Of a stretch of DNA of 64,000 bases, positions 33,435 to 52,075 are shown in pieces; position 1 is the first letter of the stretch, and each line of letters opens with the position of its first letter. Source of the DNA: Nitrospirota bacterium. GTDB taxonomy: Bacteria; Nitrospirota; Nitrospiria; Nitrospirales; Nitrospiraceae. Under the pieces are notes generated by a model, which was not told the DNA's origin, searched no databases, and saw only the letters and a list, made by a program, of their open reading frames with translations. The translations under genes were made by a program, and so were the position numbers. Location: assembly GCA_963703955.1 (NCBI GenBank), contig CAVPGK010000017.1, positions 288,001-352,000 of the forward strand, given 5' to 3'.

Positions 33435-35653
33435 CCAGTATGAACATTCAACGCGGGTTACAGTACAGCGCGACCCTGCAAGCTGCCGTGGGTTTTGTCG
33501 CCCTCACAGGAACTGGGAAGCTGCCTGCCGCCTTGATCCTGATCGGATGTCTCACCCTGGTCGCTTGCCTCGTTCGGTTCGTCGGCTACGGCGCCGGTTC
33601 TATCGTCTTTCGACTGTCGCCCATAATTTGGAATGTGATCATGGTCACCGCATTCATCGCTTCCGGAGCGGATCTTGCCTGGGGAACGCAGGACTTGCTT
33701 CAAGCGAGCATGTATGTGCTCATTCTTCTGATGGTGCATAAGCTGTGGACGGCTCAGCGTCACGGCGATTTCATGCATCTGTATGTCATCAGTTTCCTGG
33801 AGTTCTTGTCTGCGGCTGTTCTGACGATCGAGCTGTGGTATGCGATCGTTTTTGTGCTGTACTTACTCACGGCAATCTGGGCTCTCCTTCTCTGGCATCT
33901 GACCCGCGAAGCAGAGGAGGTCACAACGAGCCAAGGAACTGAGCAGGCGTTAGCGCGTGTCCCCTTGTCGGCCCGGTTTTTCTGGACGACCAACGCGATT
34001 GCCATGGGGGCCCTGTCGTTGACGTTGGCTATTTTCTTTACGATGCCGAGAACAGGGTTTGGATTTTTCCAGAAGACGGGCGGGACGCTGATTCGAACGA
34101 CGGGATTCTCTGAACAGGTTGACTTGGGCGGGATCGGCGCGGTCAAGCAGGATCAAAGCCTCGTCATGCGGGTGCAATTCCCCGACATGGAAGGTCCTCC
34201 GTCCGAGGACCTCTATTTTCGCGGTGTGGCGTTTGATCGATATAACGGACGATCGTGGACGAATACCTTCGCGCGCCGACGGCTGGTTGTCAGGAATGAT
34301 GAGGGAATCTTTACCGGGCAGAATGAAAAATACGAGGAAAGAGGCCCCCCAGGAGTTCGCCAACAGATTCTGATTGAGGCGCTGGACACATCCGTTCTGT
34401 TCGGCATGCCGTTGGTGGATGAAATCCGAGGGGCTTTTCCGGCTGTCCAAACAGACGGCATGGACGGCTGGTCTCTGCCCGTACCAATGGCAGCTCGATT
34501 TCAATACGACGCCGTTTCGTCCGTCCCCAAAATAGAAGATGCAGAACGAGTTGCGTCCTCATTCGAGTACCCCCCGGATATCAGGGAGCATTTTCTCGAC
34601 GTACCGCCGTTGAGCCCGGAGGTTGCGGATCTGGCCATGTCTGTGACGCGCCACGCGAAGTCGCCGTTTGAACGGATAGTTTCCGTCCAACGACATCTCA
34701 TGACGAACTATCGTTACAGCCTCGATGTGGACATGGATGAAACTCGTAATCCGCTGGAGGACTTTCTGTTCAGACGGAAGAGCGGGTACTGTGAGCACTA
34801 TGCGACTGCGATGGTGGTGATGCTTCGCACATTGGGCATTCCTGCCCGGTTGGTGACGGGTTTCCTGCCCGGTGAGTGGAACGAATACGGAAATTATTAT
34901 CGGGTCCGTCAGCGAGACGCCCATGCCTGGGTTGAAGTCTTTTTCCCCCAGTCGGGGTGGATTACCTTTGATCCAACCCCAACTGTCGGCACAGGCGTCC
35001 CCGATCCGATATGGCGAAAGCTCGGCAGCCTCATTGATTCAGTCCGACTGAAATGGGACCGGTTCGTCATTCAATACAGCTTTCGGGATCAGATCGCGAT
35101 TGTCCAAGCGATTCGTGAACGAAGTGAACGGGTGCGCGCAAACGGCGCGCATCTCCTGGAAACTGTCCGCCGCTGGGCAAGCACGTCGACGGCGTGGTTT
35201 GCCCACCAGGCCCGCCCGCTCGTCGGGCTGTTCGTCATCGTGGCTGTCCTTGGACTCAGCGCGTTCGTCGCACTCGCCATCAAGATGTACAAAGGCCGTC
35301 GGGCTGCTGCCCTCCATGCGGTCCGAGAGCAAGTTGCTGTGAAGATGTACGCTCGCATGCTGCGACTTCTGTCATCGCGAGGCCTGAGAAAGGCCGGAGG
35401 ATGCACGCCGTTGGAGTTTTCACGGCGGATTGCCGAGGAGTGGGCGGACGCCGGTCCTTTTGTGACGCCACTAACCGAACTCTACTGTCGGGTTCGGTAC
35501 GGCCATGAACCCTTCGAAGATCATGACCGGCAGCGGGCAGAGGAGCTGCTTCAAGGTCTTCGCGCCGCGGCTCCGTCTGTTCAGAGGCGGAAACGACTGG
35601 CTCTCACGAACCTCAGAGAAAAGTGGAAGATGTTCACAAAGCGAGAGGTCTGA
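33431..35653 (+). CDS. tgpA: Transglutaminase-like TgpA (DUF3488-TGase-DUF4129)
   Basis: GYCEHYA, GIPARLVTG, HAWVEV, FDPTP; N-terminal TMs; GTGA overlap with DUF58. Confidence 0.92.
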   Translation: MTSMNIQRGLQYSATLQAAVGFVALTGTGKLPAALILIGCLTLVACLVRFVGYGAGSIVFRLSPIIWNVIMVTAFIASGADLAWGTQDLLQASMYVLILLMVHKLWTAQRHGDFMHLYVISFLEFLSAAVLTIELWYAIVFVLYLLTAIWALLLWHLTREAEEVTTSQGTEQALARVPLSARFFWTTNAIAMGALSLTLAIFFTMPRTGFGFFQKTGGTLIRTTGFSEQVDLGGIGAVKQDQSLVMRVQFPDMEGPPSEDLYFRGVAFDRYNGRSWTNTFARRRLVVRNDEGIFTGQNEKYEERGPPGVRQQILIEALDTSVLFGMPLVDEIRGAFPAVQTDGMDGWSLPVPMAARFQYDAVSSVPKIEDAERVASSFEYPPDIREHFLDVPPLSPEVADLAMSVTRHAKSPFERIVSVQRHLMTNYRYSLDVDMDETRNPLEDFLFRRKSGYCEHYATAMVVMLRTLGIPARLVTGFLPGEWNEYGNYYRVRQRDAHAWVEVFFPQSGWITFDPTPTVGTGVPDPIWRKLGSLIDSVRLKWDRFVIQYSFRDQIAIVQAIRERSERVRANGAHLLETVRRWASTSTAWFAHQARPLVGLFVIVAVLGLSAFVALAIKMYKGRRAAALHAVREQVAVKMYARMLRLLSSRGLRKAGGCTPLEFSRRIAEEWADAGPFVTPLTELYCRVRYGHEPFEDHDRQRAEELLQGLRAAAPSVQRRKRLALTNLREKWKMFTKREV

Positions 35654-35696
35654 TCCTATCGGAAAGGAGCAGGTTTCAGGAGAGATTTTAAGAGGT

Positions 35697-35771
35697 TGGA
35701 GCGGGAAATGGGATTTGAACCCACGACCCTCGCCTTGGCAAGGCGATGCTCTACCACTGAGCTATTCCCGC
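35697..35771 (-). tRNA. tRNA-Gly (GCC)
   Basis: Reverse complement GCGGGAATAGCTCAGTGGTAGAGCATCGCCTTGCCAAGGCGAGGGTCGTGGGTTCAAATCCCATTTCCCGCTCCA folds as a cloverleaf with encoded CCA. Confidence 0.98.
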
Positions 35772-35930
35772 TCACGATTTCTTTTCAAAGGGTTATGTCA
35801 CTGTATCCTTTTGCTGTACCATCGAGTGGCAGTGAAAGTGGCACTTGCGACCAATAACCAGCCAGTTTATCGAGTGCCTGACATAGCCTTCTATCATACT
35901 CCGGTGTGTCATGACTATACGTTTCTACAA

Positions 35931-36065
35931 CGGACGATCCGGATCGTGAAGAGCCGCGGGAGCGCGCACGATCAGCATGAACACCTGCTCACCATCTCGA
36001 AGAAGGGAGTTGCCGTGGGCAAGCCCAGATCGGGCAAGCGTGGTCAGAACTCGCCAAAGAAATAG
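35931..36065 (+). pseudogene. C-terminal remnant of a KaiC/RAD55-like ATPase
   Basis: RTIRIVKSRGSAHDQHEHLLTISKKGVAVG matches the K-x-RG-x-x-H tail of KaiC-type domains. Confidence 0.55.
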
Positions 36066-36189
36066 GGTTCGGTTCACATTTTCGGATCGCAGTCAAGTAA
36101 CTGGTTTCGGATTGTGGATCAGCAGTGACTCCGCAGCACAGTCGAGCTAAGCTGTGACGAATGAACGATCTGCGGCTTAGGAATTGTTG

Positions 36190-36345
36190 ACCAGCATACG
36201 AGGGAGGCGGAAGCCAGATGAGGTTGAAGCGTCCTTCCCGGATACGAGCGGCTTGTTGCCTCACAATCTGGTACCAACGCTTCTTACCATGATTCGCAAA
36301 CTGCTGGGGGTGACCTGTGGCGGTAGGATTCCTAGTAGAATCGGG
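36190..36345 (-). pseudogene. N-terminal remnant of a GH13 alpha-amylase
   Basis: FY*ESYRH...KRWYQIVRQQAARIREGRFNLIWLPPPSYAG, with a stop and a frameshift. Confidence 0.6.
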
Positions 36346-36536
36346 CGGCCAAAAGAAGCGTCTCTACCGCTTTGCATCCCTCCCGCGTGTCTCCCGAGAC
36401 GAATTGTTGAATTAGGGTTTCCATGTACCGGCAGAATTCTGACCGATGCAGGAAATGTTGGAAGCCGATGAGACTATGCTCGTCGAAGAATAGTAAGCGG
36501 GTATTACGTGATCTAAAAGACCAATCTTCCTCAATG

Positions 36537-37448
36537 TTAATATGAGGACTGTCGCATCAATCGATCTAACTTGCCATCCAAGGCGGCAAAGTCTTCCACG
36601 ATCTCAATCTTAGATTTCGCGAAGAGATCCCGCATGGCGAGCGCGCCATCTCCGCCGACAGTCAGATTGGAAACGGGGCTCACTTCATGAGCAAGGGCGT
36701 AGACCAGCTCCGCGGCCTTGGCCTCGGAAAGTGCGAGAGGAAAGGAAATGATCGTCAGGTCTGGCTCAACCTTGCTGCAGAGGTTGGTCACAGAAGCAAT
36801 GGGCACGTTGGCTCCCAAATAGTAGACACGGCAGCCGCGAACACGACATCGATACGCAACCGCCAACGCGGCAATGTCGTGTTCCTCACCGGGTGGGCAA
36901 GCTACGACCACTTTAGCGCCGAACTCAGCCACAGGGAGCTGATTCATGGCCGCGAAAATCCTTTGCTGGATTTGCTTCGTGACGTAATGTTCGATGGCAA
37001 TGTTTACATGACCCTCGTGCCACAGCCGTCCTACCTGTTCCTGGAGTGGGAGCAGGATCCCATGAAGCGCTTCTTCAAATGGAACTACTGCAACGGCCCC
37101 GTTTAAGCGTTTCTCGAACGTCACACGATCGAAGGGATCGAGTGAGGACAGAAGTTCCCGCAGGAGCCGGCTGAATGTATTGTCGACGAATGACACTTGA
37201 GGCGCACTGGCTCGGGCTCGTCTCAACAACTCCTCACGCCCCAATTTCGACAGCTCTCCTATCGAACCTCCAGCATCAAGCTGTCCTTTGAGATATCTCA
37301 GCAGCGCAACATCCTCATCAGAATAATTGCGATAACGATTGGCTCCACGGGTCGGTTTTACGAGGCCAAACCGGCGCTCCCATATCCGAATGACGTCTCG
37401 TGAGAGCCCAGTTAGTTTTGCAACCCTATGAATTCTATGCGTATTCAT
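36537..37448 (-). CDS. CarH/LitR-type MerR regulator with AdoB12-binding domain (photoreceptor)
   Basis: MerR HTH (IRIWERRFGL..P.R...YR.YS); W-x9-EH (WHEGHVNIAIEH); ExH B12 ligand (PPGEEH); YLGANVP. Confidence 0.9.
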   Translation of the reverse strand: MNTHRIHRVAKLTGLSRDVIRIWERRFGLVKPTRGANRYRNYSDEDVALLRYLKGQLDAGGSIGELSKLGREELLRRARASAPQVSFVDNTFSRLLRELLSSLDPFDRVTFEKRLNGAVAVVPFEEALHGILLPLQEQVGRLWHEGHVNIAIEHYVTKQIQQRIFAAMNQLPVAEFGAKVVVACPPGEEHDIAALAVAYRCRVRGCRVYYLGANVPIASVTNLCSKVEPDLTIISFPLALSEAKAAELVYALAHEVSPVSNLTVGGDGALAMRDLFAKSKIEIVEDFAALDGKLDRLMRQSSY

Positions 37449-37479
37449 TCTTTGTGGCTGATTATTGATTATATTGAAA

Positions 37480-37573
37480 TGTCAAATGTTTGTCAAATAT
37501 TATTTATAATAACACTTGACACATTGGACAATGTAGTTTATACATTAGACATACTTGCTACAAACATTGAACA
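37480..37573. promoter_or_regulatory. Candidate CarH/LitR operator (11-bp direct repeats) in a divergent promoter
   Basis: TGTCAAATGTT TGTCAAATATT tandem (37480-37501); ACA cores at 37549, 37560 and 37571 (11-bp period); TTGACA at 37516. Confidence 0.7.
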
Positions 37574-37593
37574 ACAAACCTATGGAGGTGATC

Positions 37594-37890
37594 ATGGCAA
37601 CAGCGTCGGCGGACAGAACGAGAGTGGATCAGCTACGGAACCGCGCAATCTCTTCTGCTGTCTCGCATGACTCGATGTGCACGAGGTGCGGCGGACTCAT
37701 GGTGAGTGACTTCAGCATGGATCTATTGAACAGCACCGGCGAGCCGGAGTTGGCCGCGAAACGTTGCGTGCAATGTGGAGAAGTCGTCGATGCGGTCATC
37801 CAGCGCAATCGGCAGCTCCGGCAAGAATCGATCACAGTTAGGCAAACAGAGAGGATGTTCCCAGAGATGATGAGCAAACAGAATCTCTAA
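37594..37890 (+). CDS. Small CxxC...CxxC zinc-ribbon-like protein
   Basis: CTRCGGLM...CVQCGEVVD; GGAGG RBS. Confidence 0.8.
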   Translation: MATASADRTRVDQLRNRAISSAVSHDSMCTRCGGLMVSDFSMDLLNSTGEPELAAKRCVQCGEVVDAVIQRNRQLRQESITVRQTERMFPEMMSKQNL

Positions 37891-37909
37891 CCGGGAAGGA
37901 GTAGACGCC

Positions 37910-38263
37910 ATGAGAGCAAGAGCATTGATATATGGGCTCACCATAGTTGTCGCGGCAACGATGGCGGGATGTGCAGCCGATGGAGGATCCCGAATGAACG
38001 TGGCCTCCGGGGAGGCCGTGAAACCCGTGACTGCGCGAGAGGCAGTGGATCGAGCCTTCGAGTATGGCCAGCAGGTGGCCGTGTTGCGTGATGAGGCCAG
38101 AAGGCTGGAACTCGAAGGCCGGGTGGCCATGCACCGGGCGGCTGAGAAGGAAGAGGCCACGCGTATCCTGGAGAAGGCTCGAGCCATGTGGACGGCGGCC
38201 GACACGGCCGAGGACACGGCCCGGGAATATCGGCGCCAGGTGCCACATAATCAAGTGAACTGA
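37910..38263 (+). CDS. Hypothetical helical lipoprotein
   Basis: Lipobox MAGC; AAGGAG RBS; Ala/Glu/Arg-rich helices. Confidence 0.78.
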   Translation: MRARALIYGLTIVVAATMAGCAADGGSRMNVASGEAVKPVTAREAVDRAFEYGQQVAVLRDEARRLELEGRVAMHRAAEKEEATRILEKARAMWTAADTAEDTAREYRRQVPHNQVN

Positions 38264-38341
38264 CTATGTCACGGAAGGTCTTTAGGAATGTTTTCAACCA
38301 ACCAGGGTCGTCCTGGTGTTCCCAAACCAAGGAGGTTTCCA

Positions 38342-39307
38342 ATGCGGAGTCAAACGGTTCTTCAGGTCGGATTGGGAGTGGTGTTGATGGCAGGAGCCAT
38401 CTCCATCGCAACAGCGGCAGATCAGCCGAGTAGCGACAAGGACATGGTGCTGATCCCCAAAGGTGAGTTCACCATGGGGAGCAACGAGCATTGGGATGAA
38501 GCGAAGCATCAGGTTGTGCTCGATGCGTATCTCATCGACAAGTATGAGACGTCGAACGCGCGGTACAAGGAATTTATGAAAGCCACCGGTCATCCGGCTC
38601 CGGCCTATTGGGACGATCCTCGGCTCAGCAAGGCTAATCAGCCGGTCGTCGGCGTGAGCTGGACTGACGCGGGTGCCTTCTGCAAGTGGGAAGGCAAGCG
38701 GCTTCCGACGGAAGGGGAATGGGAGCGCGCGGCCAAAGGTCCGGAAGGCGACAATCATTACCCATGGGGTCACAAGCTTGATCCCAAGAAAGCCAACTAT
38801 GGGCAGAATGTTGGCCATACCACGCCGGTGGATTCCTACCCCGAAGGAGTGAGCGGGTTCGGGGTCTACAACATGGCAGGGAACGTTTTTGAATGGGTCG
38901 AGGATTGGTATGACCCGAAACACTATAAGGAGAGCCTTGCCCTGAATCCACGCGGTGCCGAGAAAGGCTACAACTTTGCCAATCAGGGCCCGGTCAAGGT
39001 GCTGCGCGGTGGGTCCTGGCTCGCTCCGGAAACTTCGTTGCACACAAGTCACCGGTTCTGGAATCAGCCGGACAATAACTCCTATGGGGTCGGGCTCGGA
39101 TTCCGTTGCGCGAAGTCTGCGCAGACGATTTCTGACGAAGCCATGCAAGCAGGACGCGATGCATTCATTGCAGCGTTAGTCGCGATGGGAGCGGAAAAGA
39201 ACGCCGATGCGATGGCCTCCATCGAGAAGGCGCTGGCTGCGGAGCCGGCCAACAAGGAATACCTGGCCACCCGCGACCTGATCAAGAAGAGCATGAAGAA
39301 GAAATAG
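38342..39307 (+). CDS. Secreted FGE-sulfatase-fold (SUMF1/EgtB/PvdO family) protein 1 with TPR-like tail
   Basis: Signal peptide; GEFTMG, RLPTEGEWERAA, MAGNVFEW, RGGSW, GFRC. Confidence 0.9.
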   Translation: MRSQTVLQVGLGVVLMAGAISIATAADQPSSDKDMVLIPKGEFTMGSNEHWDEAKHQVVLDAYLIDKYETSNARYKEFMKATGHPAPAYWDDPRLSKANQPVVGVSWTDAGAFCKWEGKRLPTEGEWERAAKGPEGDNHYPWGHKLDPKKANYGQNVGHTTPVDSYPEGVSGFGVYNMAGNVFEWVEDWYDPKHYKESLALNPRGAEKGYNFANQGPVKVLRGGSWLAPETSLHTSHRFWNQPDNNSYGVGLGFRCAKSAQTISDEAMQAGRDAFIAALVAMGAEKNADAMASIEKALAAEPANKEYLATRDLIKKSMKKK

Positions 39308-39376
39308 CCGACAGACCGGTTGGGGGGCGGTGATCCCGTCCCCCTCCGGGTCAGACTTTGGGACGGGAGGATTGTG

Positions 39377-40435
39377 ATGAATGTGTCTAAAACCATAATG
39401 CTGGTGGTCCTGGTGATGGGCATGACGATGCTGACCGGAACAAGCCATGCGGAGGAATCATTGATTCCCAAAGAGATGGTGTACATCGGGCATGGGCCGT
39501 CGGTGATGGGGATTGATAAGGAAGCGCCTGCGGACTCAGGCAAAAAGCCGACGGCGTACGAGCGACGGATGAAGACGCCCTGGTCGGCCGACGCGTTGAA
39601 CGACGAGGGTCCGGCACATATGGTGTTTCTGGATTCGTACCTCATGGATAAGTACGAAGTCTCGAACAAAGATTATGGCGAGTTCATCAGAGCAAAAGGT
39701 CATGCGGCCCCAGCCTATTGGGATGATCCTCGCTTAAATAAGCCCGAAGACCCGGTGGTCGGAGTGAACTGGGAGGACGCCAAAACCTTCTGTGAATATC
39801 GCGGGAAGCGCCTTCCAACGGAAGCTGAATGGGAAAAAGCGGCTCGTGGTCCCAAGGCCAACCTCTACCCCTGGGGCAATTACTTTGATCCAGCCAAAGC
39901 GAACTACGGCAAGAATCACGACGCGACTATGCCGGTGGATTCCTATCCAGAGGGCGCGAGTTACTATGGCGTCTACAACATGGCGGGTAATGTCTTCGAG
40001 TGGGTCTCTGATTGGTATGACCCCCGTTACTATGGACGGCTTGAAACGATGGTGAATCCAACCGGTCCGGCAAAACCCATATGGATGGGCGGAACCGGCA
40101 CCTATGTTGACCGGCTGACGGTCGGGGAAAAGCGAGTCATTCGTGGAGGATCGTGGATCGCACCGGAAGGCACAGTCAGGGCAACCCACCGGTTCTGGAA
40201 TCACCCGCTTAACAACAGTTATGGCGTGGGCCTGGGCTTCCGTTGCGCCAAGACCGCCCCGCCCGAGATCGAACAGCAGATCAGGGACAGCTACATTTCT
40301 GCCTTAGTGGGGATGGGCAGAGAACGATTTGCGGACGCTCAACAGGCGGTGGCTCGTGGCCTGGCCATTGATCCCAAGAACGTTGAACTGTTGGAGCTCC
40401 ACCCGCTGATTGAGCAGTCGATGAAGAAGCTGTGA
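39377..40435 (+). CDS. Secreted FGE-sulfatase-fold protein 2 with TPR-like tail
   Basis: Signal peptide; RLPTEAEWEKAARG, MAGNVFEW, RGGSW, GFRC; close paralog of protein 1. Confidence 0.9.
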   Translation: MNVSKTIMLVVLVMGMTMLTGTSHAEESLIPKEMVYIGHGPSVMGIDKEAPADSGKKPTAYERRMKTPWSADALNDEGPAHMVFLDSYLMDKYEVSNKDYGEFIRAKGHAAPAYWDDPRLNKPEDPVVGVNWEDAKTFCEYRGKRLPTEAEWEKAARGPKANLYPWGNYFDPAKANYGKNHDATMPVDSYPEGASYYGVYNMAGNVFEWVSDWYDPRYYGRLETMVNPTGPAKPIWMGGTGTYVDRLTVGEKRVIRGGSWIAPEGTVRATHRFWNHPLNNSYGVGLGFRCAKTAPPEIEQQIRDSYISALVGMGRERFADAQQAVARGLAIDPKNVELLELHPLIEQSMKKL

Positions 40436-40488
40436 GGGAATCTTGCACCGTTCTTATGAACGGTGTGATCGTGATGGAGGCGTTACCG

Positions 40489-40857
40489 ATGAAACGTTAC
40501 ACAACTCTTGTATTCGGGATTTCATTCAGCGCGCTCCTGGGGATTACCGCCGTCCTGGCTGGACCCATAGATCCGGCCGGCCATCCGCATCCGGAGCACG
40601 GCAAGGCGGTCCATGAGGCCGAACATGACGTGGATCATGCGTGGGAGGTCTATCATCGCGCGGCGTTAGGGGGAACCGTCGCCGCCCCTGCTCTGCAGGC
40701 CGACATCGAGCAGCACCTGCACGAAGCCAGAACCCTCATTGATCAGGCGCAGGAGGCAGCCGAGCGGGGGGACAAGCGTCAGGTGCAGCGTCTTGTTGGT
40801 CAAATCAAAATCCATACGTCCCATGCCATCGAAGGGAGCAAGGAGCAGAAGAAATGA
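40489..40857 (+). CDS. His-rich periplasmic helical protein (SmbP-like, metal binding inferred)
   Basis: Signal peptide ending VLA; many His residues (HPHPEH, HEAEHDVDH, HLHEA, HTSH); GGAGG RBS. Confidence 0.7.
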   Translation: MKRYTTLVFGISFSALLGITAVLAGPIDPAGHPHPEHGKAVHEAEHDVDHAWEVYHRAALGGTVAAPALQADIEQHLHEARTLIDQAQEAAERGDKRQVQRLVGQIKIHTSHAIEGSKEQKK

Positions 40858-41699
40858 CACTAGGTCTGCGGAGGAGAACAACTCGCTGGAGAATGATTGC
40901 GGCGATTGTAGTGGCAGTCTGTGCCGTCGCGCAGTCGCCGGTTGTGGTGGCGGTGCCGGTTTCGAAGGAGCTTGCCCCGGTTCCTATGGTGACGATTCCA
41001 GCAGGAGAATTCTTGATGGGCAATCCAGAAGGAAAAGGCCGGGCCGACGAGTGGCCACAGCGATCCGTCTACCTCGATGCATTCGCGATCGATCAAGTCG
41101 AGGTGACGAATGAACGATATATGAGGTTCGTCATGTCCACCGGCCATCGAAATCCTCCCAATCCGTATGGCACCGGCCCGCTCCTGTCCGTGAAAGGGAT
41201 TGAGCAACTCCCTGTCGCGCAGACGACGTGGTACGACGCCAAGGCTTATTGCAGTTGGGCCAAGAAGCGGCTGCCGACGGAAGCGGAATGGGAAAAGGCC
41301 GCTCGCGGCACGGATGGTCGCCTGTTTCCCTGGGGCAATGAACCAGCGACATTGAAGCGGGCGAACTTTGACCGCGAATGGGAGGACGAAAAGACGTTAT
41401 ACCCGGTCGGGTCATTGCCTGGTGGAGACTCACCCTATGGGGTGAAGGACATGGCCGGCAATGCCAGGGAGTGGGTCTCTGACTGGTACGACCCGGAGTA
41501 CTACAAGCATGCGCCGGATCGGAATCCGCAGGGTCCTGACAAAAAAGGAGTGGTCCGATCGATTCGCGGCGGGTCATGGCATAGCCCGGTGGCCGATATC
41601 ACGACATCAGCAAGAGGTCGCGGCGGGTTTGCCCTGCAGACTCACGGCACCGGGTTCCGCTGTGCCCGTGGTCTCGAGGGGGAGATTCAGCAGAAGTAG
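40854..41699 (+). CDS. Secreted FGE-sulfatase-fold protein 3
   Basis: GEFLMG, RLPTEAEWEKAARG, MAGNAREW, RGGSW, GFRC; ATGA overlap with the upstream gene. Confidence 0.9.
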   Translation: MTLGLRRRTTRWRMIAAIVVAVCAVAQSPVVVAVPVSKELAPVPMVTIPAGEFLMGNPEGKGRADEWPQRSVYLDAFAIDQVEVTNERYMRFVMSTGHRNPPNPYGTGPLLSVKGIEQLPVAQTTWYDAKAYCSWAKKRLPTEAEWEKAARGTDGRLFPWGNEPATLKRANFDREWEDEKTLYPVGSLPGGDSPYGVKDMAGNAREWVSDWYDPEYYKHAPDRNPQGPDKKGVVRSIRGGSWHSPVADITTSARGRGGFALQTHGTGFRCARGLEGEIQQK

Positions 41700-41915
41700 C
41701 GGGCCGAGGTGGGATGTGAGGGAACTCAATAACAACGGCAGAAATCCGGAGGTCGGTTCTCTTTTACCGACCAGGTGGCGCCGCGACTCCGCACGGCGTC
41801 TTCCGCTGAGGCAGACGGGTCTCTCCCTCGGGAGGACCTCGTCCCCTCGGTGGGCAACTGGAGCGGCTCATATAAAGGTAGGCGCAGTACTGTCGGCAAT
41901 CACGAGGAGGACAGC

Positions 41916-42041
41916 ATGACCACGTTAATTGTGTTGGCAATGGTGGTGGCGGCTTTGAGCTGTTTGACGAGTGCTGCGCAATGGAGACCCGCTGTCGCGT
42001 TGCCGCGGCAGGCCGGATTGAGCAGCCCTTGTGTCAAGTAA
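41916..42041 (+). CDS. 41-aa small hydrophobic protein
   Basis: GAGGAGG RBS; MTTLIVLAMVVAALSCLTSAAQWRPAV... Confidence 0.55.
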   Translation: MTTLIVLAMVVAALSCLTSAAQWRPAVALPRQAGLSSPCVK

Positions 42042-42082
42042 GGAGGTTCGGTTGTCCTTCTTTATAGCCGTCGAGGGTTCCC

Positions 42083-42408
42083 GTGGAATCAAATGGGAGA
42101 CCAGACAATCCTGCTGTCTCTGCCCCGCACATCGACGACATCTGCGCGCGTTGTGGTGGACTGATGGTTTTGGCGCACTACATGGATCTGCAGGACGATA
42201 CAGGTCAGATCGGGATGACGGCGTACGATGCACGAGTTGCGGAGAGGTCGTCGACCCGGTCATTCTTCAGAACCGAGTCAAGCCGGCGCCGAATCTCTTG
42301 TACGGCACAAAGCAGCGCAAGTAGGTACAGCGAGTGGATGACGGTGAGTCGGATGGTTCAGTCAATCTGGACAGCAATGGCAGCGGAGAGGGCCATGGCC
42401 ATAGTTGA
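42083..42408 (+). pseudogene. Second CxxC...CxxC zinc-ribbon paralog, frameshifted
   Basis: CARCGGLM in one frame and RCTSCGEVVDPVILQNR in another; TAG at 42322. Confidence 0.7.
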
Positions 42409-42453
42409 CCAGGCCAGTGCCGCGTCGTAGCTCTCTGATAAGGAGATAACGCC

Positions 42454-43371
42454 ATGCACATCGTCGTGACCGGAGGGACGGGGTTCATCGGTCGGGCCCT
42501 GTGCGCTTCGTTGTTCCAGGATGGCCACCGAGTCACCATCCTCACGAGAGATGCGAGAGAAGCATCGCAGCTGTTGGGGGCGATCGTGACGGCGATCGAG
42601 TGGAATGGCCGAGAGGCGGGAGCCTGGGAGCAGTGTCTCGAAGGTGCCGATGCCGTCATCAACCTCGCTGGTGCGCCGATTGCCGATGCTCGCTGGACCA
42701 ATGCGAGGAAGCGACTCCTCACCGAGAGTCGAGTACTTACCACTCGCCTACTCGTCGAGGCCATGTCCAGCCGGTCGTCGAAACCTCGGACACTCATCAG
42801 CGCTTCCGGCATCGGCTACTACGGGGCCAGTGACGATCATGTGCTCGATGAGGGCGCGGCGCGCGGTCAGGGTTTTCTTGCCGACCTGTGCCTCGCATGG
42901 GAAGCAGACGCGCTGCGGGCGGCGGAGTTCGGTACGCGTGTCGTGCTGGTACGAACCGGAATGGTGCTCGAACATGATGGCGGCGCGCTGCCGAAGATGC
43001 TGTTGCCGTTTAGGCTTTTCGCGGGCGGCCCGATCATGCCGGGAACTCAGTGGGTCTCCTGGATCCATCGGCGCGATCACATCGGGTTGATTCAGTGGGC
43101 GATTACGACTCCCAACGTCTCCGGTCCCGTCAATGCCGTGGCACCTGGTCCTGTGACGATGAACACGTTCTGTGAAGATCTCGGGCGCGTCCTCCACCGG
43201 CCCTCCTGGCTTCCGGTACCGGGTTTGGCGCTGAAAGTTGTGCTGGGGGAACTGGGAACGCTCATGACGACCGGTCAACGGGTCAATCCTACGAAGGCGC
43301 TGGCCGGCGGCTATGTCTTTCGGTATCCGACGCTGGAACCCGCACTACGAGCAATTCTCACGAAAGGATAG
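42454..43371 (+). CDS. TIGR01777 family NAD-dependent epimerase/oxidoreductase (YfcH-like)
   Basis: TGGTGFIG, INLAG..I...RW, SASGIGYYG, WIHRRD, PVNAVAP. Confidence 0.93.
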   Translation: MHIVVTGGTGFIGRALCASLFQDGHRVTILTRDAREASQLLGAIVTAIEWNGREAGAWEQCLEGADAVINLAGAPIADARWTNARKRLLTESRVLTTRLLVEAMSSRSSKPRTLISASGIGYYGASDDHVLDEGAARGQGFLADLCLAWEADALRAAEFGTRVVLVRTGMVLEHDGGALPKMLLPFRLFAGGPIMPGTQWVSWIHRRDHIGLIQWAITTPNVSGPVNAVAPGPVTMNTFCEDLGRVLHRPSWLPVPGLALKVVLGELGTLMTTGQRVNPTKALAGGYVFRYPTLEPALRAILTKG

Positions 43372-43384
43372 AGGAGCGTCTGAA

Positions 43385-43855
43385 ATGGTGTCGCTGATCG
43401 AATATCTTCACTTGCTGGCCGCCGCCGTTCTTGTCGGCAAGGTCGTGCTCTTGTCTTTCGTGGTGGCGCCTATTCTTGCGAAGAATCTGGAGCGAGAGCC
43501 GTTCGGCAAAGTCGTGCGCCAACTGTTTCCGGCTTATTATGCATTGGGAATGGGGACGGCGATGGTGGGACTAATCTCCGTGGCAGGGCTGGGGCTGATC
43601 CGCGGCATGAGTGGGGCTCTGCTTGTCGCCGGTGGGACTTGGCTCCTCATTTTCGTGGCCGAAGCCTATTGCCGATGGCCGCTGACGCCGCAGAGTAATG
43701 CGATGAGGGATCGGCTCAAGGAGCAGGAATCACGGGGAGCTGTCGATCCCGCTTTGCAGGCCGCGTGGAATCAATTGCATCAACGGTCAGTCTATCTGAA
43801 CTCACTCGTGCTACTCGCGGGACTGTGTTTACTCGGTCTGGCAAGTCGATTGTAG
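43385..43855 (+). CDS. DUF4149/TMEM205-like membrane protein
   Basis: 4 TM; SFVVAP..., LFPAYY, LHQRSVYLN. Confidence 0.82.
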   Translation: MVSLIEYLHLLAAAVLVGKVVLLSFVVAPILAKNLEREPFGKVVRQLFPAYYALGMGTAMVGLISVAGLGLIRGMSGALLVAGGTWLLIFVAEAYCRWPLTPQSNAMRDRLKEQESRGAVDPALQAAWNQLHQRSVYLNSLVLLAGLCLLGLASRL

Positions 43856-43874
43856 GTCACAAGGAGGAACGCAC

Positions 43875-44328
43875 ATGAGGATCAAGGGAATCCATATCGG
43901 CGGCAGGTGTGATGATGGGCCTTCTGTTGACCGGTGCGGCCGGGGCTGCTGACCAGCCCGTGAGCCTGGCTCCGTATGCGAATGGAGATGATGCCAAGCT
44001 GCCGATCGGCGTGATCGGCGTGTCGCTCCAGGTCGGGGCTGAGCGTATCGGTGATCCAGCGGTGCTGTATGTCGGGATGGTGCATCCGGAGGGACCAGCT
44101 CACCAAGCAGGGCTCAGACATGGAGATGAGGTCGTGACCGTGGATGGGACGACGGTGACGGGGAAGAGTTATGAGCAGGTGGTCAAGATGATCCGGGGAG
44201 AAGCGGGAACCATCGTGAAGTTGGGGGTCAAAGGTGACGGAGGAAATCGGGAACTTTCCATCACACGTGTGGCCAGCGATAAACTCCCGAAGGATCCGAC
44301 GGGATCGCACGGTGGTCCTTCTAGATAG
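43875..44328 (+). CDS. Secreted single-PDZ protein (frameshift in signal peptide)
   Basis: GVIGV, GPAHQAGLRHGDEVVTVDG, IRGEAGT; the ATG at 43875 with AGGAGG RBS is out of frame with the PDZ ORF at 43909. Confidence 0.8.
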
Positions 44329-44337
44329 GAGTTCATC

Positions 44338-45123
44338 GTGGTGAGTCACATCAAAATCGTAGCGTTGTTCGGGCTGCTCATCCTGTTGGGCGGAGGGTCG
44401 GCATTCGCTGAACCAAGCCGTCCACTGTCCGGCCAGATTCATTCGAACGTCACTAGGATGGATCTGTATCTGGCTGCCGGCGACTACCGGCGTGCGCTCG
44501 AGACCTGCCAGCGCGAGATCGACGACGCGCCGTCGGCTGCAAGCTACATCCACCTCACCTATGTGTATCAGGCGATCGATGCCTATTTAGAACATCTATC
44601 GCAGGAAGAGCGGTGGATGGCCGTTGAGCACCTGTATCTCAATCTTGCGTACCGCGACACCGAAGACTTCGTCGATCCTCCGGGAGGACTTGCCCGCATG
44701 GCCAAGGAAATGATCCAGGCGAGCGGGGATATCAAATTGTTGGGCGGGTTGTTCCTGATCGTGGGGGCCGTGGACCTCGTCATCATCGTATTGTTCCCCT
44801 TCTACGCCTTGAAACTCTTCGGGACAGCCGTGACCGGTTCTTTGTCGTTTCTGGTTAAACTTCACTCCCCCGCCGTGCATTTATTGATCGGGTACGGATT
44901 TCTTGCGTCCCTGGGCCCTGGGGCCTCAGCCTGGGGCGTATGCGGGATTCGGGATAGTGAGCGAAGCGATGAATCAACTCGCCCTCGGATTCCACATGGT
45001 CCGTTCAAAATTCATCGCGACCACCGCTTTGTTCGTCATCTATTTGTTCTGGCGCCGGCAACTCTTCACTGATCAGCCGGCTATGACGACCACCAGGCCG
45101 TCTGTTCGGAAGGATCGCACTGA
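44338..45123 (+). CDS. Apparent chimera: secreted helical protein N-part fused to a small membrane protein, with further frameshifts
   Basis: Abrupt switch from soluble TPR-like sequence to TM segments at MIQAS|GDIKLLGGLF (about 44725); the hydrophobic frame continues in ORF 44903. Confidence 0.55.
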
Positions 45124-46568
45124 TGCACGGTATTGTGTGGCTCAGACGGGACCTCAGGCTCTCCGACCAGCCGGCCCTGACGGCGGCCTGTGAGGCATGC
45201 AGCGAAGTGATTCCTCTCTTTGTGTTCGACGAGCCGCTCTTGCAGTCCCATGTCTTCGGCTCCGCCTGCGTGAACTTCATGCTCGGCTGCCTACAAGATT
45301 TGGCTGCGTCGTTGGCCGGTCGAGGCGTCCCGCTCCAATGGCGTCGCGGAGAACCAGTGCAAGAAGTTGTTCAAGCCGCACGTGAATGGAAGGCGGACGT
45401 CGTCTATTGGAATCGCGACTACGAGCCGGGGGCGATCGAGCGAGACCGCGCGGTCCAACACCGACTCGCAAAGATGGGCGTGGTGGTCCGCACGTTCAAG
45501 GACCACGTCGTGTTTGAAGGGGAAGAAGTCGTCGGGGTAACCGGTGATCCGATGCAGCGCTACGGCGCCTATCGCGCACGCTGGTGGGTCAAGTGGCAGG
45601 CGACGAAACCGCCGGTGCTGCCCATTCCCAAAACGTTAACGGCTGAAAAAGCTTCGTTCCTGCCCTCCCCTCGTCCAATCCCCACGGCTGGTGAGCTGGG
45701 GTACGAGCTGGTCACGCCCTGGATCGAGGCTGGCGAGCGAAGCGCCCGGAAGCGGCTGGGCTGGTTCATCGAAGGGCCGATTCATACCTATGTCAACGGC
45801 AGGAACCTGCCGGCTATCGATGGGAGTTCACAACTCTCTCCCCACTTTCGATTCGGAACGCTTTCGCCTCGTGCCGCGATCCATGCCGCCTTGGCCGCTC
45901 TCGCGAAGGGTGGTCGGGTTTCGAGAGCCGACGTCCTGACGTGGATTGATGAACTGGTGTGGAGAGAATTCTTCCAGCAAGTATTGTCGGCGTTTCCGCG
46001 CGTCGTTGACGGTCCATTCCGTCACGTTGCAGTCCCTCCTGCCCGTGTTCCAGGGTTGGAACGGGACCGGCTGTTTCAGGCCTGGTGTGATGGGAAGACC
46101 GGCTATCCGATCGTGGATGCGGGCATGCGCCAACTCAACAGGACGGGCTGGATGCATAACCGTGTACGAATGATCGCGGCGTCATTTCTAATCAAGGACC
46201 TTCGGATTGACTGGCAGAGCGGTGAACGCTATTTCATGCAGCACCTCATTGATGCTGATGTCGCGGCCAACAACGGTAACTGGCAGTGGTGTGCCTCGAC
46301 CGGCACGGACGCGATGCGAGGGCATCGTATTTTCAACCCGGTTCTGCAAAGCAAGAAGTTCGATCCGGACGGAATCTACATCCGTGAGTACGTGCCGGAA
46401 CTGGCGAAGGTCGCGAGCAAATGGATTCATGCGCCGCATCTGATAACCCCGAACGAACAAGTTCGATATGGTTGTCGTATCGGGGTCGACTACCCTGCGG
46501 CCATCGTGGATCATCGGCAAGCCCGCCAGGAATATTTGGATCTCGGCAAGCAACAGGTGACGAGATGA
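45123..46568 (+). CDS. phrB: Deoxyribodipyrimidine photolyase (class I-like)
   Basis: WLRRDLRL.D.PAL, SQLSPHFRFG, WREFF, GWMHNRVRM, NNGNWQW, RIFNP. Confidence 0.95.
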   Translation: MHGIVWLRRDLRLSDQPALTAACEACSEVIPLFVFDEPLLQSHVFGSACVNFMLGCLQDLAASLAGRGVPLQWRRGEPVQEVVQAAREWKADVVYWNRDYEPGAIERDRAVQHRLAKMGVVVRTFKDHVVFEGEEVVGVTGDPMQRYGAYRARWWVKWQATKPPVLPIPKTLTAEKASFLPSPRPIPTAGELGYELVTPWIEAGERSARKRLGWFIEGPIHTYVNGRNLPAIDGSSQLSPHFRFGTLSPRAAIHAALAALAKGGRVSRADVLTWIDELVWREFFQQVLSAFPRVVDGPFRHVAVPPARVPGLERDRLFQAWCDGKTGYPIVDAGMRQLNRTGWMHNRVRMIAASFLIKDLRIDWQSGERYFMQHLIDADVAANNGNWQWCASTGTDAMRGHRIFNPVLQSKKFDPDGIYIREYVPELAKVASKWIHAPHLITPNEQVRYGCRIGVDYPAAIVDHRQARQEYLDLGKQQVTR

Positions 46569-47518
46569 CGACCGCGACGCTTCGTCTTGGGATCAGCCGT
46601 TGTCTCCTCGGAGACGAAGTCCGGTTCGACGGGGGACATAAGCGGGACAATTTTCTGACGGACGTGTTCGGTCGCTATGTGGAATGGGTCCCCGTCTGTC
46701 CTGAAGTCGAAGCCGGACTCGGTACTCCTCGGGAAGCGATGCGGTTGGTTGGTGATCCCCGCCATCCCCGTCTCGTGACAATCAGAAGCGGAAACGATCA
46801 CACGCAGGTGTTGGTGACGATGACTGCAAAGCGCATCGAAGAACTCAAGGAGCTGGACCTCTCCGGGTATGTGTTCAAGAAGGATTCACCGAGCTGCGGC
46901 GTCGAACGAGTCCGTCTCTACAATGAGCAAGGGATGCCTAGCCGGAACGGGGTCGGGGTATTCGCGCGGGCCTTTATCGAGCAATTCCCGCTGATTCCCG
47001 TTGAGGAGGAAGGGCGGCTCTGTGATCCTCCGCTCAGGGAGAATTTTATCGAGAGGGTCTTCTGCTACCGTCGATTCCAGGGTCTTGTGCAGAACGGGAT
47101 CACGAGACAGGCTGTGGTGCGGTTTCACACGATCCACAAGTATCTGCTCCTCTCCCATAGCCAGCAGCACTACCAAGTCCTCGGGCGGCTAGTCGGTCAA
47201 GCGGAGCACCACCGTCCCAAGGAGCTGGCCTTAAGGTATGGGGAACTCTTCATGAAGACGTTGGCCGTGAAGGCGACGGTGCGCAAGCACGTAAATGTGT
47301 TGCAGCACATTCTGGGCTACTTCAAGGACCGATTGGGCGATCAAGAGAAAGCGGAACTGTTGGGCGTGATCGGCGATTATCATCGAGGGCTCACGCCCTT
47401 GATTGTCCCTCTCACACTGATCAAGCACTACGTTCAGGTCTTCGATGTCGGCTACATTCGCGACCAGGTGTATCTCAATCCTCACCCGAAAGAACTCATG
47501 TTGCGAAACCATGTGTAA
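46565..47518 (+). CDS. ybgA: DUF523-DUF1722 protein (YbgA/RudS-type thiouracil/4-thiouridine desulfidase)
   Basis: SRCLLG..VRFDGGHK, VCPEVE.GLGTPRE, SPSCG (three Fe-S Cys), FH..HKYLL, NVLQHILGYFK, YLNPHP; ATGA overlap with phrB. Confidence 0.92.
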   Translation: MTTATLRLGISRCLLGDEVRFDGGHKRDNFLTDVFGRYVEWVPVCPEVEAGLGTPREAMRLVGDPRHPRLVTIRSGNDHTQVLVTMTAKRIEELKELDLSGYVFKKDSPSCGVERVRLYNEQGMPSRNGVGVFARAFIEQFPLIPVEEEGRLCDPPLRENFIERVFCYRRFQGLVQNGITRQAVVRFHTIHKYLLLSHSQQHYQVLGRLVGQAEHHRPKELALRYGELFMKTLAVKATVRKHVNVLQHILGYFKDRLGDQEKAELLGVIGDYHRGLTPLIVPLTLIKHYVQVFDVGYIRDQVYLNPHPKELMLRNHV

Positions 47519-47921
47519 GTGTTGAAAGGAGTCGGATGATGGGGAAGGAAGTCAAAGCACAAACATCTACTCCCTCCTTGTTTGGTTATTTGGGACTCGG
47601 TGATAAGGGAGGGATAGCCAAAAGACTGCGATAGGGCAACTGAGGAAGTGGTTCCAATGCTCGACATGTTATGGAGAGCGCGGGAGGGACAGGATCGTGT
47701 CTAGGGAGTTTCGGGCAAGCGTCGGGCTGTCGCTAAGCCAATTGCGGACCGCATCGTCTTTGTCTCCATGACCCATCGTCGGGCGGTAGAGAGCAGGACC
47801 GACGATTCAGGTGCCACTAGTGGCACTGGCTTTGTAACTACGCGATACTAAAAGGGACGAAAAAGCACTAAAACGAGGCTGATTCTACCTAAGTGATTGA
47901 TATAAAGATGCTTTTTATTGT

Positions 47922-47959
47922 CTTGGCAAGGCGATGCTCTACCACTGAGCTATTCCCGC
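47922..47959 (-). repeat. att site: displaced 5' half of tRNA-Gly
   Basis: CTTGGCAAGGCGATGCTCTACCACTGAGCTATTCCCGC is identical to 35734-35771. Confidence 0.95.
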
Positions 47960-47983: not shown

Positions 47984-48012
47984 ATTCTACCGAGCGGGTC
48001 ACTTCAAGTCAA
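47984..48012 (-). promoter_or_regulatory. Sigma70 promoter in front of the tRNA 5' fragment
   Basis: Minus strand TTGACT-17 bp-TAGAAT, 24 bp upstream of the fragment's 5' G. Confidence 0.75.
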
Positions 48013-48517: not shown

Positions 48518-51500
48518 ATGTTTTTGTCACGGCGGCAATTCTTAAAGGTATCGGCGGGAACGATGGCGGCAGCGGCGATTGCCGATCAGGCATTGGCGTT
48601 GACGGCGCTGCAGCCGGTCATCGAGGTGGGCAACCCGCTCGGCGAGTACCCGGACCGGTCCTGGGAGCGGGTCTATCACGATCAGTACCGGTATGACTCG
48701 TCGTTTACGTAGTGCTGCTCGCCGAATGACACGCACGCCTGTCGCGTTCGCGCCTTTGTGCGCAACGGCGTGGTGATGCGGGTGGAGCAGAACTACGATC
48801 ACCAGACGTATGAAGACCTGTACGGGAACCGCGGCACCTTCGCGTGGAATCCCGCGCATGTGCTTGAAGGGCTACACGTTTCATCGGCGGGTGTACGGGC
48901 CGTACCGGTTGAAGGGCCCGATGATGCGGCAAGGCCTGGAAGGAGTGGGTCGATGACGGGCTGCCGGAGCTGTCTCCGGAAGTGAAGACGCAAGTACAAG
49001 TTTGAGCCGCGGCACTGGACGACATGCTGCGGGTGTCCTGGGATACGGCGTTTACGTACCTGGCCAAGGCGCCAGGTGAAGATCGCCGAGCGCTACAGCG
49101 GGGAAGCCGGGCGCGCGGCGGCTGCGCGAGCAGGGGTATCCGCCGGAGATGATCGAGATCCATGAAGGGCGGCGGGCGTCCGGACGCTTCAAGTATCGGC
49201 CGGGCATGGCGGTGTTGGGCATCGTCGGCAAGATCGGGATCGGCCGCATGTCGGATGCGAATGCTCGCCCTGTTGGATGCCTAGATTCGCAAGGTTGGAC
49301 CGGACCAAGCGCAGTCGGCGGCCGGTACTGGTCCAGCTATACCTGGCACGGCGATCAAGACTCCGTCGCATCCTTTCTGGAACGGGATGCAGAACTCCGA
49401 CATCGACCTCGTCCGACATGCGTTTCTCCAAGCTGCACACGAGCTGGGGCAAGAACTTCGTCGAGCACAAGATGCCGGAAGCGCACTGGATGATCGAGTG
49501 CATGGAGCGCGGGGGCCGGCTCGTCGGTCATCACGCCGGAGTACAATCCGACGGCCTCGAAGGCGGACTACTGGATTCCGGTCCGGCCCGGAGTCGGATG
49601 GCGCCCTCTTCCTGGGGACCTGCAAGATCATCATCGACGAGAACTTGTACGACGCGGACTTCTGCAAGCAGTTCACGGACATGCCGATCCTGGTCCGGAC
49701 GGACACGTTGCAGTATCTGGACCCGCGGGACGTGATTAAGGACTACAAGCCTTCCGGATCTGTCCGAAGCGCTATTCGGGAAGGTGCAGGCATCAAGCGG
49801 AGCGATTACCGCGAGCGGCTGGGCGACTTCATGGTGTGGGACACGGCGAAGAACCAGGCGGTGCCGCTGGATCGGGAGCAGGTGGGCTGGCACTATGATG
49901 AAGGCCGGGATCGATCCGGCGCTGGACGGGCACGTACCGGGTCAAGCTGCTGGATGGCAACGAAGTGGACGTGATGCCGATCTTCCAGATGTATCAAGAT
50001 CCACGTGCAGGACTTCGACCTGGACACGACGCATCAGATCACGAACTCGCCGAAGGACCTGATTGTGCGCTGGGCCCGGGATTCCGGGACGATCAAGCCG
50101 GCCGCGATTCACAACGGCGAGGGCGTCTGCCACTGGTTCCACATGACCGCGAACGGCCGCGGGGCGGCCATGGTGCTGATCATCACCGGCAATGTGGGCA
50201 AGTTCGGCCCGGCAGCCATACCTGGTCCGGCAACTACAAGACCGGAGCGCTGCATGGCGACGCCGTGGTCCGGGTACGGCATTAACGCCGTGCAACGGGC
50301 GAGGATCCGTTCGAGTTGAACCTTGATCCGAACGCGCACGGCAAGGAAATCCACACCAAGTACGTACGACTATGGCGAAGAGTCGGCGTACTGGAACCAT
50401 GGCGATCACGGCGCTGATCGTGAACACCCCGAAGTACGGGCGCAAGGTGTTTACCGGCAAGACCCACATGCCGTCGCCGACGCAAGTGCCGATGGATGGT
50501 CAACGTGAACGTGCTCAACAACTCGAAGTACCACTACGACATGGTCAAGAACGTCGACCCGAATATCGAGTGCATCGTGGTCCAGGACCTTGAGATGACG
50601 TCCGACGTGAACTATGCGGACGTGGCCTTCGCGATCAATTCCTGGATGGAGTTTACCTATCCGGAGATGACGATCACGTGCTCCAATCCCTGGGTGCAGA
50701 TCTGGAAGGGCGGCATCAGGCCGCTGTACGACACCCGCAACGACCTGGATACCGCATGCGGGCGTGGCGCAGAAGTGGACGGAGATGACCGGCGATCAAG
50801 CGGATTCAGCAGACTACTTGCAAGTTCGTGATACAGAACCAGGTGGACGTGTACGTGCAGCGGATGTTGGATGCCTCCAGCACGTTCTACGGCTACAACG
50901 CGAAGACGATGCTGAAGTCGGAGAAGGGCTGGATGGTGATGACGCGGACCTATCCGCGCGTGCCGTTCTGGGAAGAGATCAACGAGAGCAAGCCGCAGTG
51001 GACGCGATCGGGCCGGTTCGAGAATTACCGGGTCGAGCCGGAGGCGATCGAGTACGGGGAGAACTTCATCGTGCACCGGGAAGGACCGGAGGGCACGCCG
51101 TACCTGCCGAATGCGATTTTCCGACCAACCCGTACATTCGGCCGGATGACTACGGGATTCCGATCACGGCGCAGCATCATGACGACAAGCACGTGCGCAA
51201 TACTCAAGCTGCCGTGGCAGGAAATCCGGCGCACATGCCAACCCGTTGTGGGAGAAGGGGTATCAGTTCTACTGCGTGACCCCGAAGACCCGGCACCGGG
51301 TGCACAGCCAGTGGTCGGTCAACGACTGGATGCAGATGTATCGAGTCGAACTTCGGCGATCGCGTACCGGATGGACAAGCGGACGCCGGGGGTCGGCGAG
51401 CATCAGATGCATGTCAATCCGAGGCCGCGAAGGACCGGGGCATCAACGACGGCGACTACGTCTATGTGGACGCCAATCCGGTCGACCGGCCGTATCGCGG

Positions 51501-51998: not shown

Positions 51999-52075
51999 GG
52001 ACTGAGTCACGAGGACTGGCGCAGAGAGCCGCCACGGCAGCACCAGTCCTCGCATACGGTAACGGAGGAGAAACC

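Follow-up and report, generated by a model that had tools for sequence, protein, structure and literature searches.

A window of 64,000 nucleotides (the whole stretch of DNA analyzed here; contig CAVPGK010000017.1, positions 288,001 to 352,000) from a Nitrospirota bacterium of the family Nitrospiraceae contains a single tRNA gene, a tRNA-Gly(GCC), with a tgpA-like gene on its 3′ side and a block of regulator, FGE-sulfatase-domain, photolyase, and desulfurase genes on its 5′ side (Table 1). The first 38 nucleotides (nt) of the tRNA gene recur at the far end of this block as a direct repeat, 100% identical and 12,188 bp away. We consider it very probable that the interval between the two copies is a 12.2-kb genomic island that a tyrosine integrase of its own likely inserted at the anticodon loop, in the 5′ (reversed) orientation, and that has likely lost its mobility. 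Only one tRNA-Gly(GCC) was found among the 38 tRNA genes called in the genome of this window (G000; 3.3 Mb in 28 contigs), and because the assembly is 82% complete, all genome-wide negative results below cover that share.

Table 1. Features of the island and its chromosomal flanks, in window coordinates
Feature	Position	Strand	Evidence or remark
tgpA-like transglutaminase gene, end of moxR-DUF58-tgpA; chromosomal flank on the tRNA 3′ side	33389..35653	+	Pfam; same flank in relatives
Intact (reconstituted) tRNA-Gly(GCC)	35697..35771	-	ARAGORN; nt 1-38 probably element derived
att junction 1, putative element copy of tRNA nt 1-38	35734..35771	-	anticodon loop (predicted 7-bp overlap) at 35735-35741
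67-amino-acid open frame; codons 20-61 (~35806-35931) are a tyrosine integrase C-terminal remnant	35788..35988	-	similarity to G212 integrase
Two direct TGCCAC repeats within the integrase tail; putative arm-type sites	35825..35844	-	
27-bp block, 93-100% identical in four 5′-type tails; candidate replacement promoter or binding site	35893..35919	-	DNA alignment
MerR/B12-binding regulator, CarH/LitR-like; codirectional with the tRNA	36537..37448	-	Pfam PF13411, PF02607, PF02310
Small open reading frames (ORFs) and three FGE-sulfatase-domain genes (38288-39307, 39320-40435, 40854-41699)	37555..42324	+	
TIGR01777-family oxidoreductase, DUF4149, PDZ protein, 244-amino-acid ORF	42454..45072	+	
DNA photolyase-family gene	45123..46568	+	single copy found in assembly
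2-thiouracil desulfurase (DUF523)-DUF1722; last cargo gene	46421..47518	+	Pfam
Far arm with palindrome GTGCCACTAGTGGCAC (47811-47826), 96 nt from the loop	47805..47839	-	common to tRNA-Phe 3′-type elements
att junction 2, displaced native 5′ half of tRNA-Gly (nt 1-38)	47922..47959	-	repeat match
Native tRNA promoter TTGACT-17-TAGAAT, 24 nt upstream of the fragment; now faces into the island	47984..48012	-	promoter scan
nxrA start (presumed nitrite oxidoreductase alpha); chromosomal flank on the tRNA 5′ side, 558 nt from the fragment	48518..48710	+	

The repeat comprises the 5′ acceptor strand, the D arm, the 5′ strand of the anticodon stem, and the 7-nt loop plus 1 base. The identity begins at tRNA nt 1 and not upstream of it and stops one base past the anticodon loop (nt 31 to 37), an extent from which a crossover at the loop is predicted; about 1e-13 such repeat pairs are expected by chance in 64 kb. 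The displaced fragment keeps the orientation of the gene. GC content gives no island signature (50 to 61% per kb, with the flanks alike). A 39-bp stretch inside the island (36375-36412) has a 95% identical inverted copy at C17:376567-376605.

The chromosomal arrangement before insertion is preserved in relatives. The gene adjoining the fragment, which we take to be nxrA and which is followed by a NarH-like beta gene, lies 493 to 989 nt from the 5′ end of tRNA-Gly at 15 of 20 chosen loci, and 11 of these 15 also carry tgpA on the tRNA 3′ side, as in G000. The island cargo is present at none of the 20 loci, and a promoter equivalent to that in Table 1 precedes tRNA-Gly at all of them. Most of the loci were picked for having tRNA and nxrA matches close together, and they therefore demonstrate the existence of the empty site but not its frequency. 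Because the native promoter and nxrA adjoin the far fragment and relatives lacking the cargo show the empty site, the fragment is best read as the displaced native 5′ half, with the 5′ half of the intact gene supplied by the element. The preliminary description of this locus had reported the exact repeat of nt 1-38 with the island on the 5′ side of the intact gene and had proposed a real island, a crossover in the loop, and an attP supplying the 5′ half; the repeat is confirmed, a crossover in the loop is what its extent predicts, and the island and the origin of the 5′ half are supported by the promoter standing with the fragment and by the tgpA-tRNA-nxrA empty site, which that description had suggested looking for. 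At the closest tgpA relative (68%; L057, G006:C310), tRNA-Gly is reversed relative to tgpA, with a native-type promoter between them.

The genes next to the fragment bear on the quality of the assembly. The nxrA and nxrB genes (48518-53500) are split into many short frames; three public runs carry a G at 48711, which replaces a stop codon with Trp, a single base is missing at 49107 in three, and the broken frames are probably consensus errors in a multicopy operon rather than pseudogenes. The presence of these nxr-like genes suggests that the host is a relative of Nitrospira. Such errors nearby lend some color to the idea that the repeat is an assembly join of two DNA pieces at a conserved tRNA, as does the failure of any listed public contig to bridge either junction, the contigs breaking at the tRNA. 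A join of this kind would not yield a half-tRNA ending at the loop, an arm spacing typical of the family, and an integrase tail correctly placed and directed; both flanks fit the empty site of relatives, and two soil runs (X1 and X3, possibly the source samples) hold 99 to 100% identical contigs from the island interior and the flanks. We regard an assembly join as very improbable.

The far end of the island connects it to elements of the 3′ type. Of 370 family genomes, 16 contain matches to the 152-bp far-arm sequence, 19 loci in all, and at 15 of these loci a tRNA-Phe(GAA) 3′ fragment is adjacent, which is the usual orientation. The palindrome GTGCCACTAGTGGCAC stands 97 to 99 nt from the loop in the 13 Phe-type loci measured, close to its spacing in the island, which shares with the Phe/Glu/Lys-targeting tyrosine integrase clade defined here a TGCCAC/GTGGCA-type repeat 96 to 99 nt inside the distal att site. 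The 16-bp palindrome also matched 26 viral loci, which were rejected as unrelated, none having a tRNA or integrase match nearby.

The far arm led to the integrase of a Phe-type relative (L103), and through it to an integrase remnant in the island: the L103 integrase gave a weak alignment with a minus-strand frame immediately upstream of tRNA-Gly. Searched against 371 genomes, this 67-amino-acid frame matched an intact integrase in G212 (E value of 4.8e-7 per genome) and two remnants in G206, and four of the eight nonself rows of that search (L135-L138) were discarded as spurious. The remnant is 52% identical to the intact G212 integrase over 42 amino acids and includes the Tyr aligned with the presumed catalytic Tyr. 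The G212 integrase and the two G206 remnants each lie directly upstream of, and codirectional with, a tRNA gene, which is Lys(TTT) in two cases and Glu(CTC) in the third; a search of the 10 and 20 kb preceding the two G206 remnants turned up no 5′ fragment. Among 94 clade sequences, the three best matches to the remnant are these three 5′-type tails (44.7, 42.0, and 35.8 bits versus at most 31.2 for the rest), and a clade profile built without the 5′-type members ranks the remnant as its top match in the island (E value of 0.021, or 0.003 with G212 added). Conventional tests do not detect it: PF00589 has 22 matches in the genome and none in the island, and the 21 integrase frames of G000 found no match in the island. 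The preliminary description had accordingly recognized no integrase; the roughly 42-codon tail overturns that statement and names the family of the element.

The G212 element supplies a complete counterpart. A fragment of nt 1-41 of Lys(TTT) lies 13,776 bp upstream of tRNA-Lys(TTT). The element has the intact tyrosine integrase and, about 98 nt from the loop by hand count, a related repeat. It resembles the island in its 5′ orientation, integrase tail, anticodon stem (identical), and size (13.8 kb) and differs from it in having an intact integrase, a different tRNA, and none of the cargo genes. The tRNA genes Lys(TTT) and Gly(GCC) have in common the end of the D arm and the entire anticodon stem.

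Relatives of the G212 integrase (E value of ≤1e-25) occur in 91 of 370 family genomes and not in G000. We typed 93 loci of this clade, namely, the best 30, 60 more from the match list, and three from the remnant search. The integrases lie beside 3′ sites of Phe (35 loci), Glu(CTC) (25, one via a weak fragment), Lys(TTT) (17), and Glu(TTC) (1); one more stands beside a displaced Gly(GCC) 3′ fragment, 11 have no tRNA, 2 are of the 5′ type, and 1 was set aside. A Lys(CTT) 5′ label at L232 was dropped as a 21-nt chance match, and the locus is counted among those without a tRNA; the locus set aside, L133, was kept out of the tree, its best full-length match being an unrelated integrase at 28% identity. 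The clade is thus mostly conventional (3′), and both orientations of entry occur at each of Lys(TTT), Glu(CTC), and Gly(GCC). These numbers suggest that the 5′ form is derived within the clade, the root of the quick tree (90 clade rows and 3 outgroups) not being a tested one.

The layout of the two types is alike. In nearly all tRNA-linked cases, the 3′ end of the integrase gene faces the intact tRNA or its att site, and a 5′-type element therefore has the same layout with the tRNA turned round. The closest integrase pair in G000 by bit score combines a Cys (5′ type) and a His (3′ type) integrase that are 52% identical. At many 3′-type members (L148-L233), the integrase frame continues through the antisense strand of the tRNA 3′ half, and recombination would therefore alter the tail of the protein. 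At two places, L133 (G206:C122) and G023:C1:2789094, a single tRNA lies between integrase sequences, 5′ type upstream and 3′ type downstream.

Several observations weigh against our interpretation. The remnant is short and reaches only the E value given above with the profile free of 5′-type members; it has no NCBIfam match and none in a large protein database (95 candidates, none with an E value of ≤1), a result of little weight with so short a query. In the quick tree, G212 groups with the Phe clade (SH value of 92, unstarred) on a long branch. The 5′ form is rare at Gly(GCC) itself: an intact element at this site was found in none of 370 family genomes and in no viral sequence. Scans of genomes and metagenomes with a fragment pattern, which required 37 exact bases and by design misses about a quarter of true fragments, returned four matches, of which one is true, on a 2.8-kb metagenome contig with different arm repeats; the other three are intact tRNA variants. 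Viral scans gave no match to the 5′-fragment pattern or the 27-bp block and no confirmed Phe-type integrase.

Other recombination systems fit less well. Insertion by a serine recombinase, as in tycheposons, or by host recombination at a partial tRNA duplication would agree with the large serine recombinase locus of the genome (C11) and, according to the available text of bioRxiv 2020.12.28.424599, with the partial tRNAs of about 40 nt that flank tycheposons. That locus is on a different contig from the island, and the remnant and arms belong to a tyrosine integrase clade; the island ORFs scanned include none of the tycheposon hallmark integrase, excisionase, or replication families, and no PF07508 match lies in the island. 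We give this explanation hardly any weight, even less than the assembly join. A pTN3/SSV-type split (suicidal) integrase was likewise rejected, since no integrase piece was found at the far end of the island with the genome integrase frames or the clade profile, and in G212 the whole gene stands on one side.

Whether the island can still move was also considered. Excision in trans could come from a cognate integrase encoded at another place in the genome or brought in by an incoming element, and the att copies (38 of 38 identical) and the arm-like repeats at both ends are intact. The incomplete assembly leaves room for such a gene, and related elements exist, as soil runs X2 and X6 contain short far-arm contigs (70 nt with 4 differences and 43 nt with 5). 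On the other side, the G212 integrase has no match in G000 at the threshold given above, the best G000 match to a Phe-type integrase is at 27%, and the top clade-profile score in G000 is 121 bits versus about 385 to 415 for the lowest full-length members. Continued mobility is therefore unlikely, and since the integrase gene is reduced to its last ~42 codons, the island has likely become immobile. The preliminary description had left the element either fixed or mobilized in trans; the first part stands as likely, and the second is without support, no cognate integrase having been found in the 82%-complete assembly. The TGCCAC arm patterns searched for occur once in the genome, at the island's own far arm.

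We therefore favor the reading of a decayed island of the 5′ type, with the following history. The element would have come from a 5′-oriented sublineage of an integrase clade of the Nitrospiraceae whose members mostly insert at tRNA-Phe, Glu(CTC), and Lys(TTT) in the usual 3′ way, and it probably reached Gly(GCC) from Lys(TTT), as the anticodon stems are identical. Its circular form would have carried the integrase gene, followed by the tRNA 5′ half, the loop, and the far arm. Recombination in the 7-nt loop would have rebuilt the tRNA downstream of the integrase gene, with attP giving the 5′ half, and pushed the native 5′ half and its promoter 12 kb away. Later, most of the integrase gene would have been lost or replaced by the CarH-like/photolyase block of the family. 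The tRNA must now rely on island DNA for its transcription, the retained integrase tail being the most likely source and read-through from the carH-like gene the alternative.

The evidence on transcription centers on a 27-bp block in the tail. In the four 5′-type tails, which were found by protein similarity, DNA identity is 93 to 100% in the block versus 23 to 63% before it and 41 to 82% after it; the limits of the block were set after the alignment had been viewed. A TATGAT hexamer within it lies 121 to 131 nt upstream of the tRNA in all four tails (~120 nt in the island), with no clear -35 element. Between G000 and G212, the codons of 9 of 11 conserved residues in or just past the block are unchanged, versus 0 of 4 beyond it (hand count; Fisher P value of 0.011), and in the three decayed copies the similarity to the intact protein ends within about 30 nt upstream of the block. 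From this pattern, we favor the block as a candidate tRNA promoter; its conservation may instead reflect a protein-binding site or recent common descent. Weighing against a promoter, no candidate upstream of the intact tRNA passed a scan of 35400-36600, and the highest score that the matrix gave there, 7.1 bits, is at background level (11% of 400 random windows score as high). The training set of the matrix consisted mainly of a single promoter type, and most other 5′-type sites also score at background level. A canonical sigma-70 promoter was thus not found upstream of the intact tRNA by scan or matrix, and a sigma-54 reading of the TGGCAC repeats was rejected by eye for want of a GG-N10-GC directed at the tRNA. 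Read-through from the codirectional carH-like gene is possible, since no minus-strand terminator was found between that gene and the tRNA. We tentatively propose, as a wider idea somewhat less likely to be right than wrong, that Nitrospiraceae tRNA integrases often flip the orientation of their target and that the 5′ sublineage hides a noncanonical tRNA promoter around the catalytic-Tyr codons; the sole tRNA-Gly(GCC) would then depend on 27 bp, where decay halts, with the integrase tail and cargo locked in.

The 5′ layout recurs in this genome and family. Six tRNAs of G000 (Gly-GCC, Pro-GGG, Pro-TGG, Ser-CGA, Leu-CAA, and Cys-GCA) have an upstream 5′ fragment on the same contig, and four more 5′ fragments are present. 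In five complete relatives, a hand count of integrases with the 3′ end no more than about 350 bp from a listed tRNA (150 of 225 tRNA rows listed; five Xer-like genes at a conserved place excluded by judgment) gave 14 convergent and 7 upstream-codirectional cases. Fragments were sought only at these 7; 6 have a 5′ fragment of 40 to 42 nt located 7 to 33 kb upstream. A 5′ fragment was also absent from the 60 kb upstream of the G212 tRNA-Thr site. With the unconfirmed site dropped, 6 of 20 compares with the 159 of 3,919 islands with a 5′ fragment in Islander (Hudson, Lau and Williams, PMC4383910) at a P value of 1e-4, which is overstated because kin are not independent. This suggests that the 5′-type layout is common in the Nitrospiraceae, far above the 4% of Islander.

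Other fragments of G000 were recorded alongside. The extra 5′ fragments (C21:48687, C21:5641, C6:182561, and 184255) derive from tRNA-Ser(TGA) (this one lies inside the Cys island), tRNA-Thr(CGT), and tRNA-Arg(ACG), and for the latter two no intact gene was called in the assembly. The tRNA-Lys(CTT) (C19:15817 and five other places) shows five 3′ fragments over four contigs, which suggests a tandem array of islands. An ARAGORN tmRNA call at C11:276838-277152, which overlaps tRNA-Ser(CGA), is probably a false one. A hairpin of the type GGGGATTAC...GTAATCCCC directly follows many displaced 5′ tRNA fragments (C6:62676, C11:74181, C15:177622, and C6:182561 in G000; also L246, L253, and L085) and perhaps ends the transcript from the orphaned promoter. 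The Gly island has no such hairpin, and its native promoter may therefore read antisense into DUF523-photolyase.

The cargo has its own distribution. The photolyase-DUF523 stretch matches 102 of 120 family genomes (best 80%), and most of the 20 cargo loci fetched have the same gene order, several of them near tRNA-Leu(CAG), Glu, or Pro genes instead. DNA similarity to these loci ends at the ends of carH and DUF523, and G000 has no second carH-like, photolyase, or DUF523 copy. Judged from these matches, the cargo is family DNA moved to a new place. CarH/LitR proteins are B12-dependent light-sensing regulators with photolyase genes. The island regulator resembles them in its MerR and B12-binding domains and in being divergent from an operon that runs from the FGE-sulfatase genes through the photolyase to DUF523-DUF1722, and its translation shows W-x9-EH, which we take to be the CarH/LitR motif. 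It scores 121 bits against NCBIfam CarH, below the cutoff of 400 and hence outside the CarH equivalog, and the island also differs from CarH/LitR systems in lacking carotenoid genes and in having three FGE-sulfatase-domain genes. An AT-rich stretch with repeated GACA/TACA words (37480-37570) lies between the carH-like gene and the operon; such words presumably mark a candidate CarH-type operator. The gene families suggest a role of the cargo in light stress.

The use of the 5′ part of a tRNA gene has been described before. A bacterial element recombining in this way was reportedly presented by Zhao and Williams in 2002; compared with that case, in outline only, the host, target tRNA, and integrase clade are identified here, and the integrase is a remnant. 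According to the available text of PMC6563490, which cites Zhao and Williams 2002, 5′ recombination is considerably rarer. The available text of PMC8371274 describes pTN3-like integrases of Thermococcales that use the tRNA 5′ half, with the rebuilt tRNA expressed from the integrase promoter, as seldom met in bacteria. On that account, these elements resemble the island in having the tRNA 5′ half as attB and the rebuilt tRNA downstream of integrase sequence; they are archaeal, and their integrase is split into int(N) and int(C) on integration, whereas in the G212 relative the integrase gene is still whole and ends at the tRNA 5′ end. The closest match is the 5′-fragment class of Islander with an anticodon-centered (A) site. 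The island has an intact tDNA with an upstream end fragment in the same orientation, an interval within 2 to 200 kb, a predicted loop crossover, a tyrosine integrase family, and an empty attB in relatives; it departs from the members of that class in having no intact integrase (no PF00589 match), and the Islander filter would likely reject it. It is a decayed 5′-type tyrosine-integrase island and is filed here as a decayed member of the class. The contrast drawn in the preliminary description between the duplicated 5′ half and the usual 3′ part needs qualifying, the layout being a described minority class that is common in this genome and family. Literature searches for a Nitrospira report of the 5′ layout and for an element-supplied promoter found nothing specific; they covered few subscription papers, and the Islander island lists may hold Nitrospira cases. 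The layout itself is known, and what is added here is its apparent commonness in the Nitrospiraceae, the kinship of the Lys and Gly targets, the retained integrase tail, and the 27-bp block kept in four tails.

Taken singly, the island is an ordinary example of a minority class that has already been described, and its value lies in a traceable change of integrase target. The clade has Phe, Glu(CTC), Lys(TTT), and Gly(GCC) as targets, several of them in both orientations, and the rules of site choice are thus testable with few att pairs. If 5′-type islands are as common in the Nitrospiraceae as the counts suggest, searches confined to 3′ fragments or to intact integrases would miss many of them. 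The fixed cargo includes the sole photolyase found in the assembly of a probable nitrite oxidizer. If the 27-bp block is a promoter, an essential tRNA relies on a dead element, which would explain the fixation of such islands.

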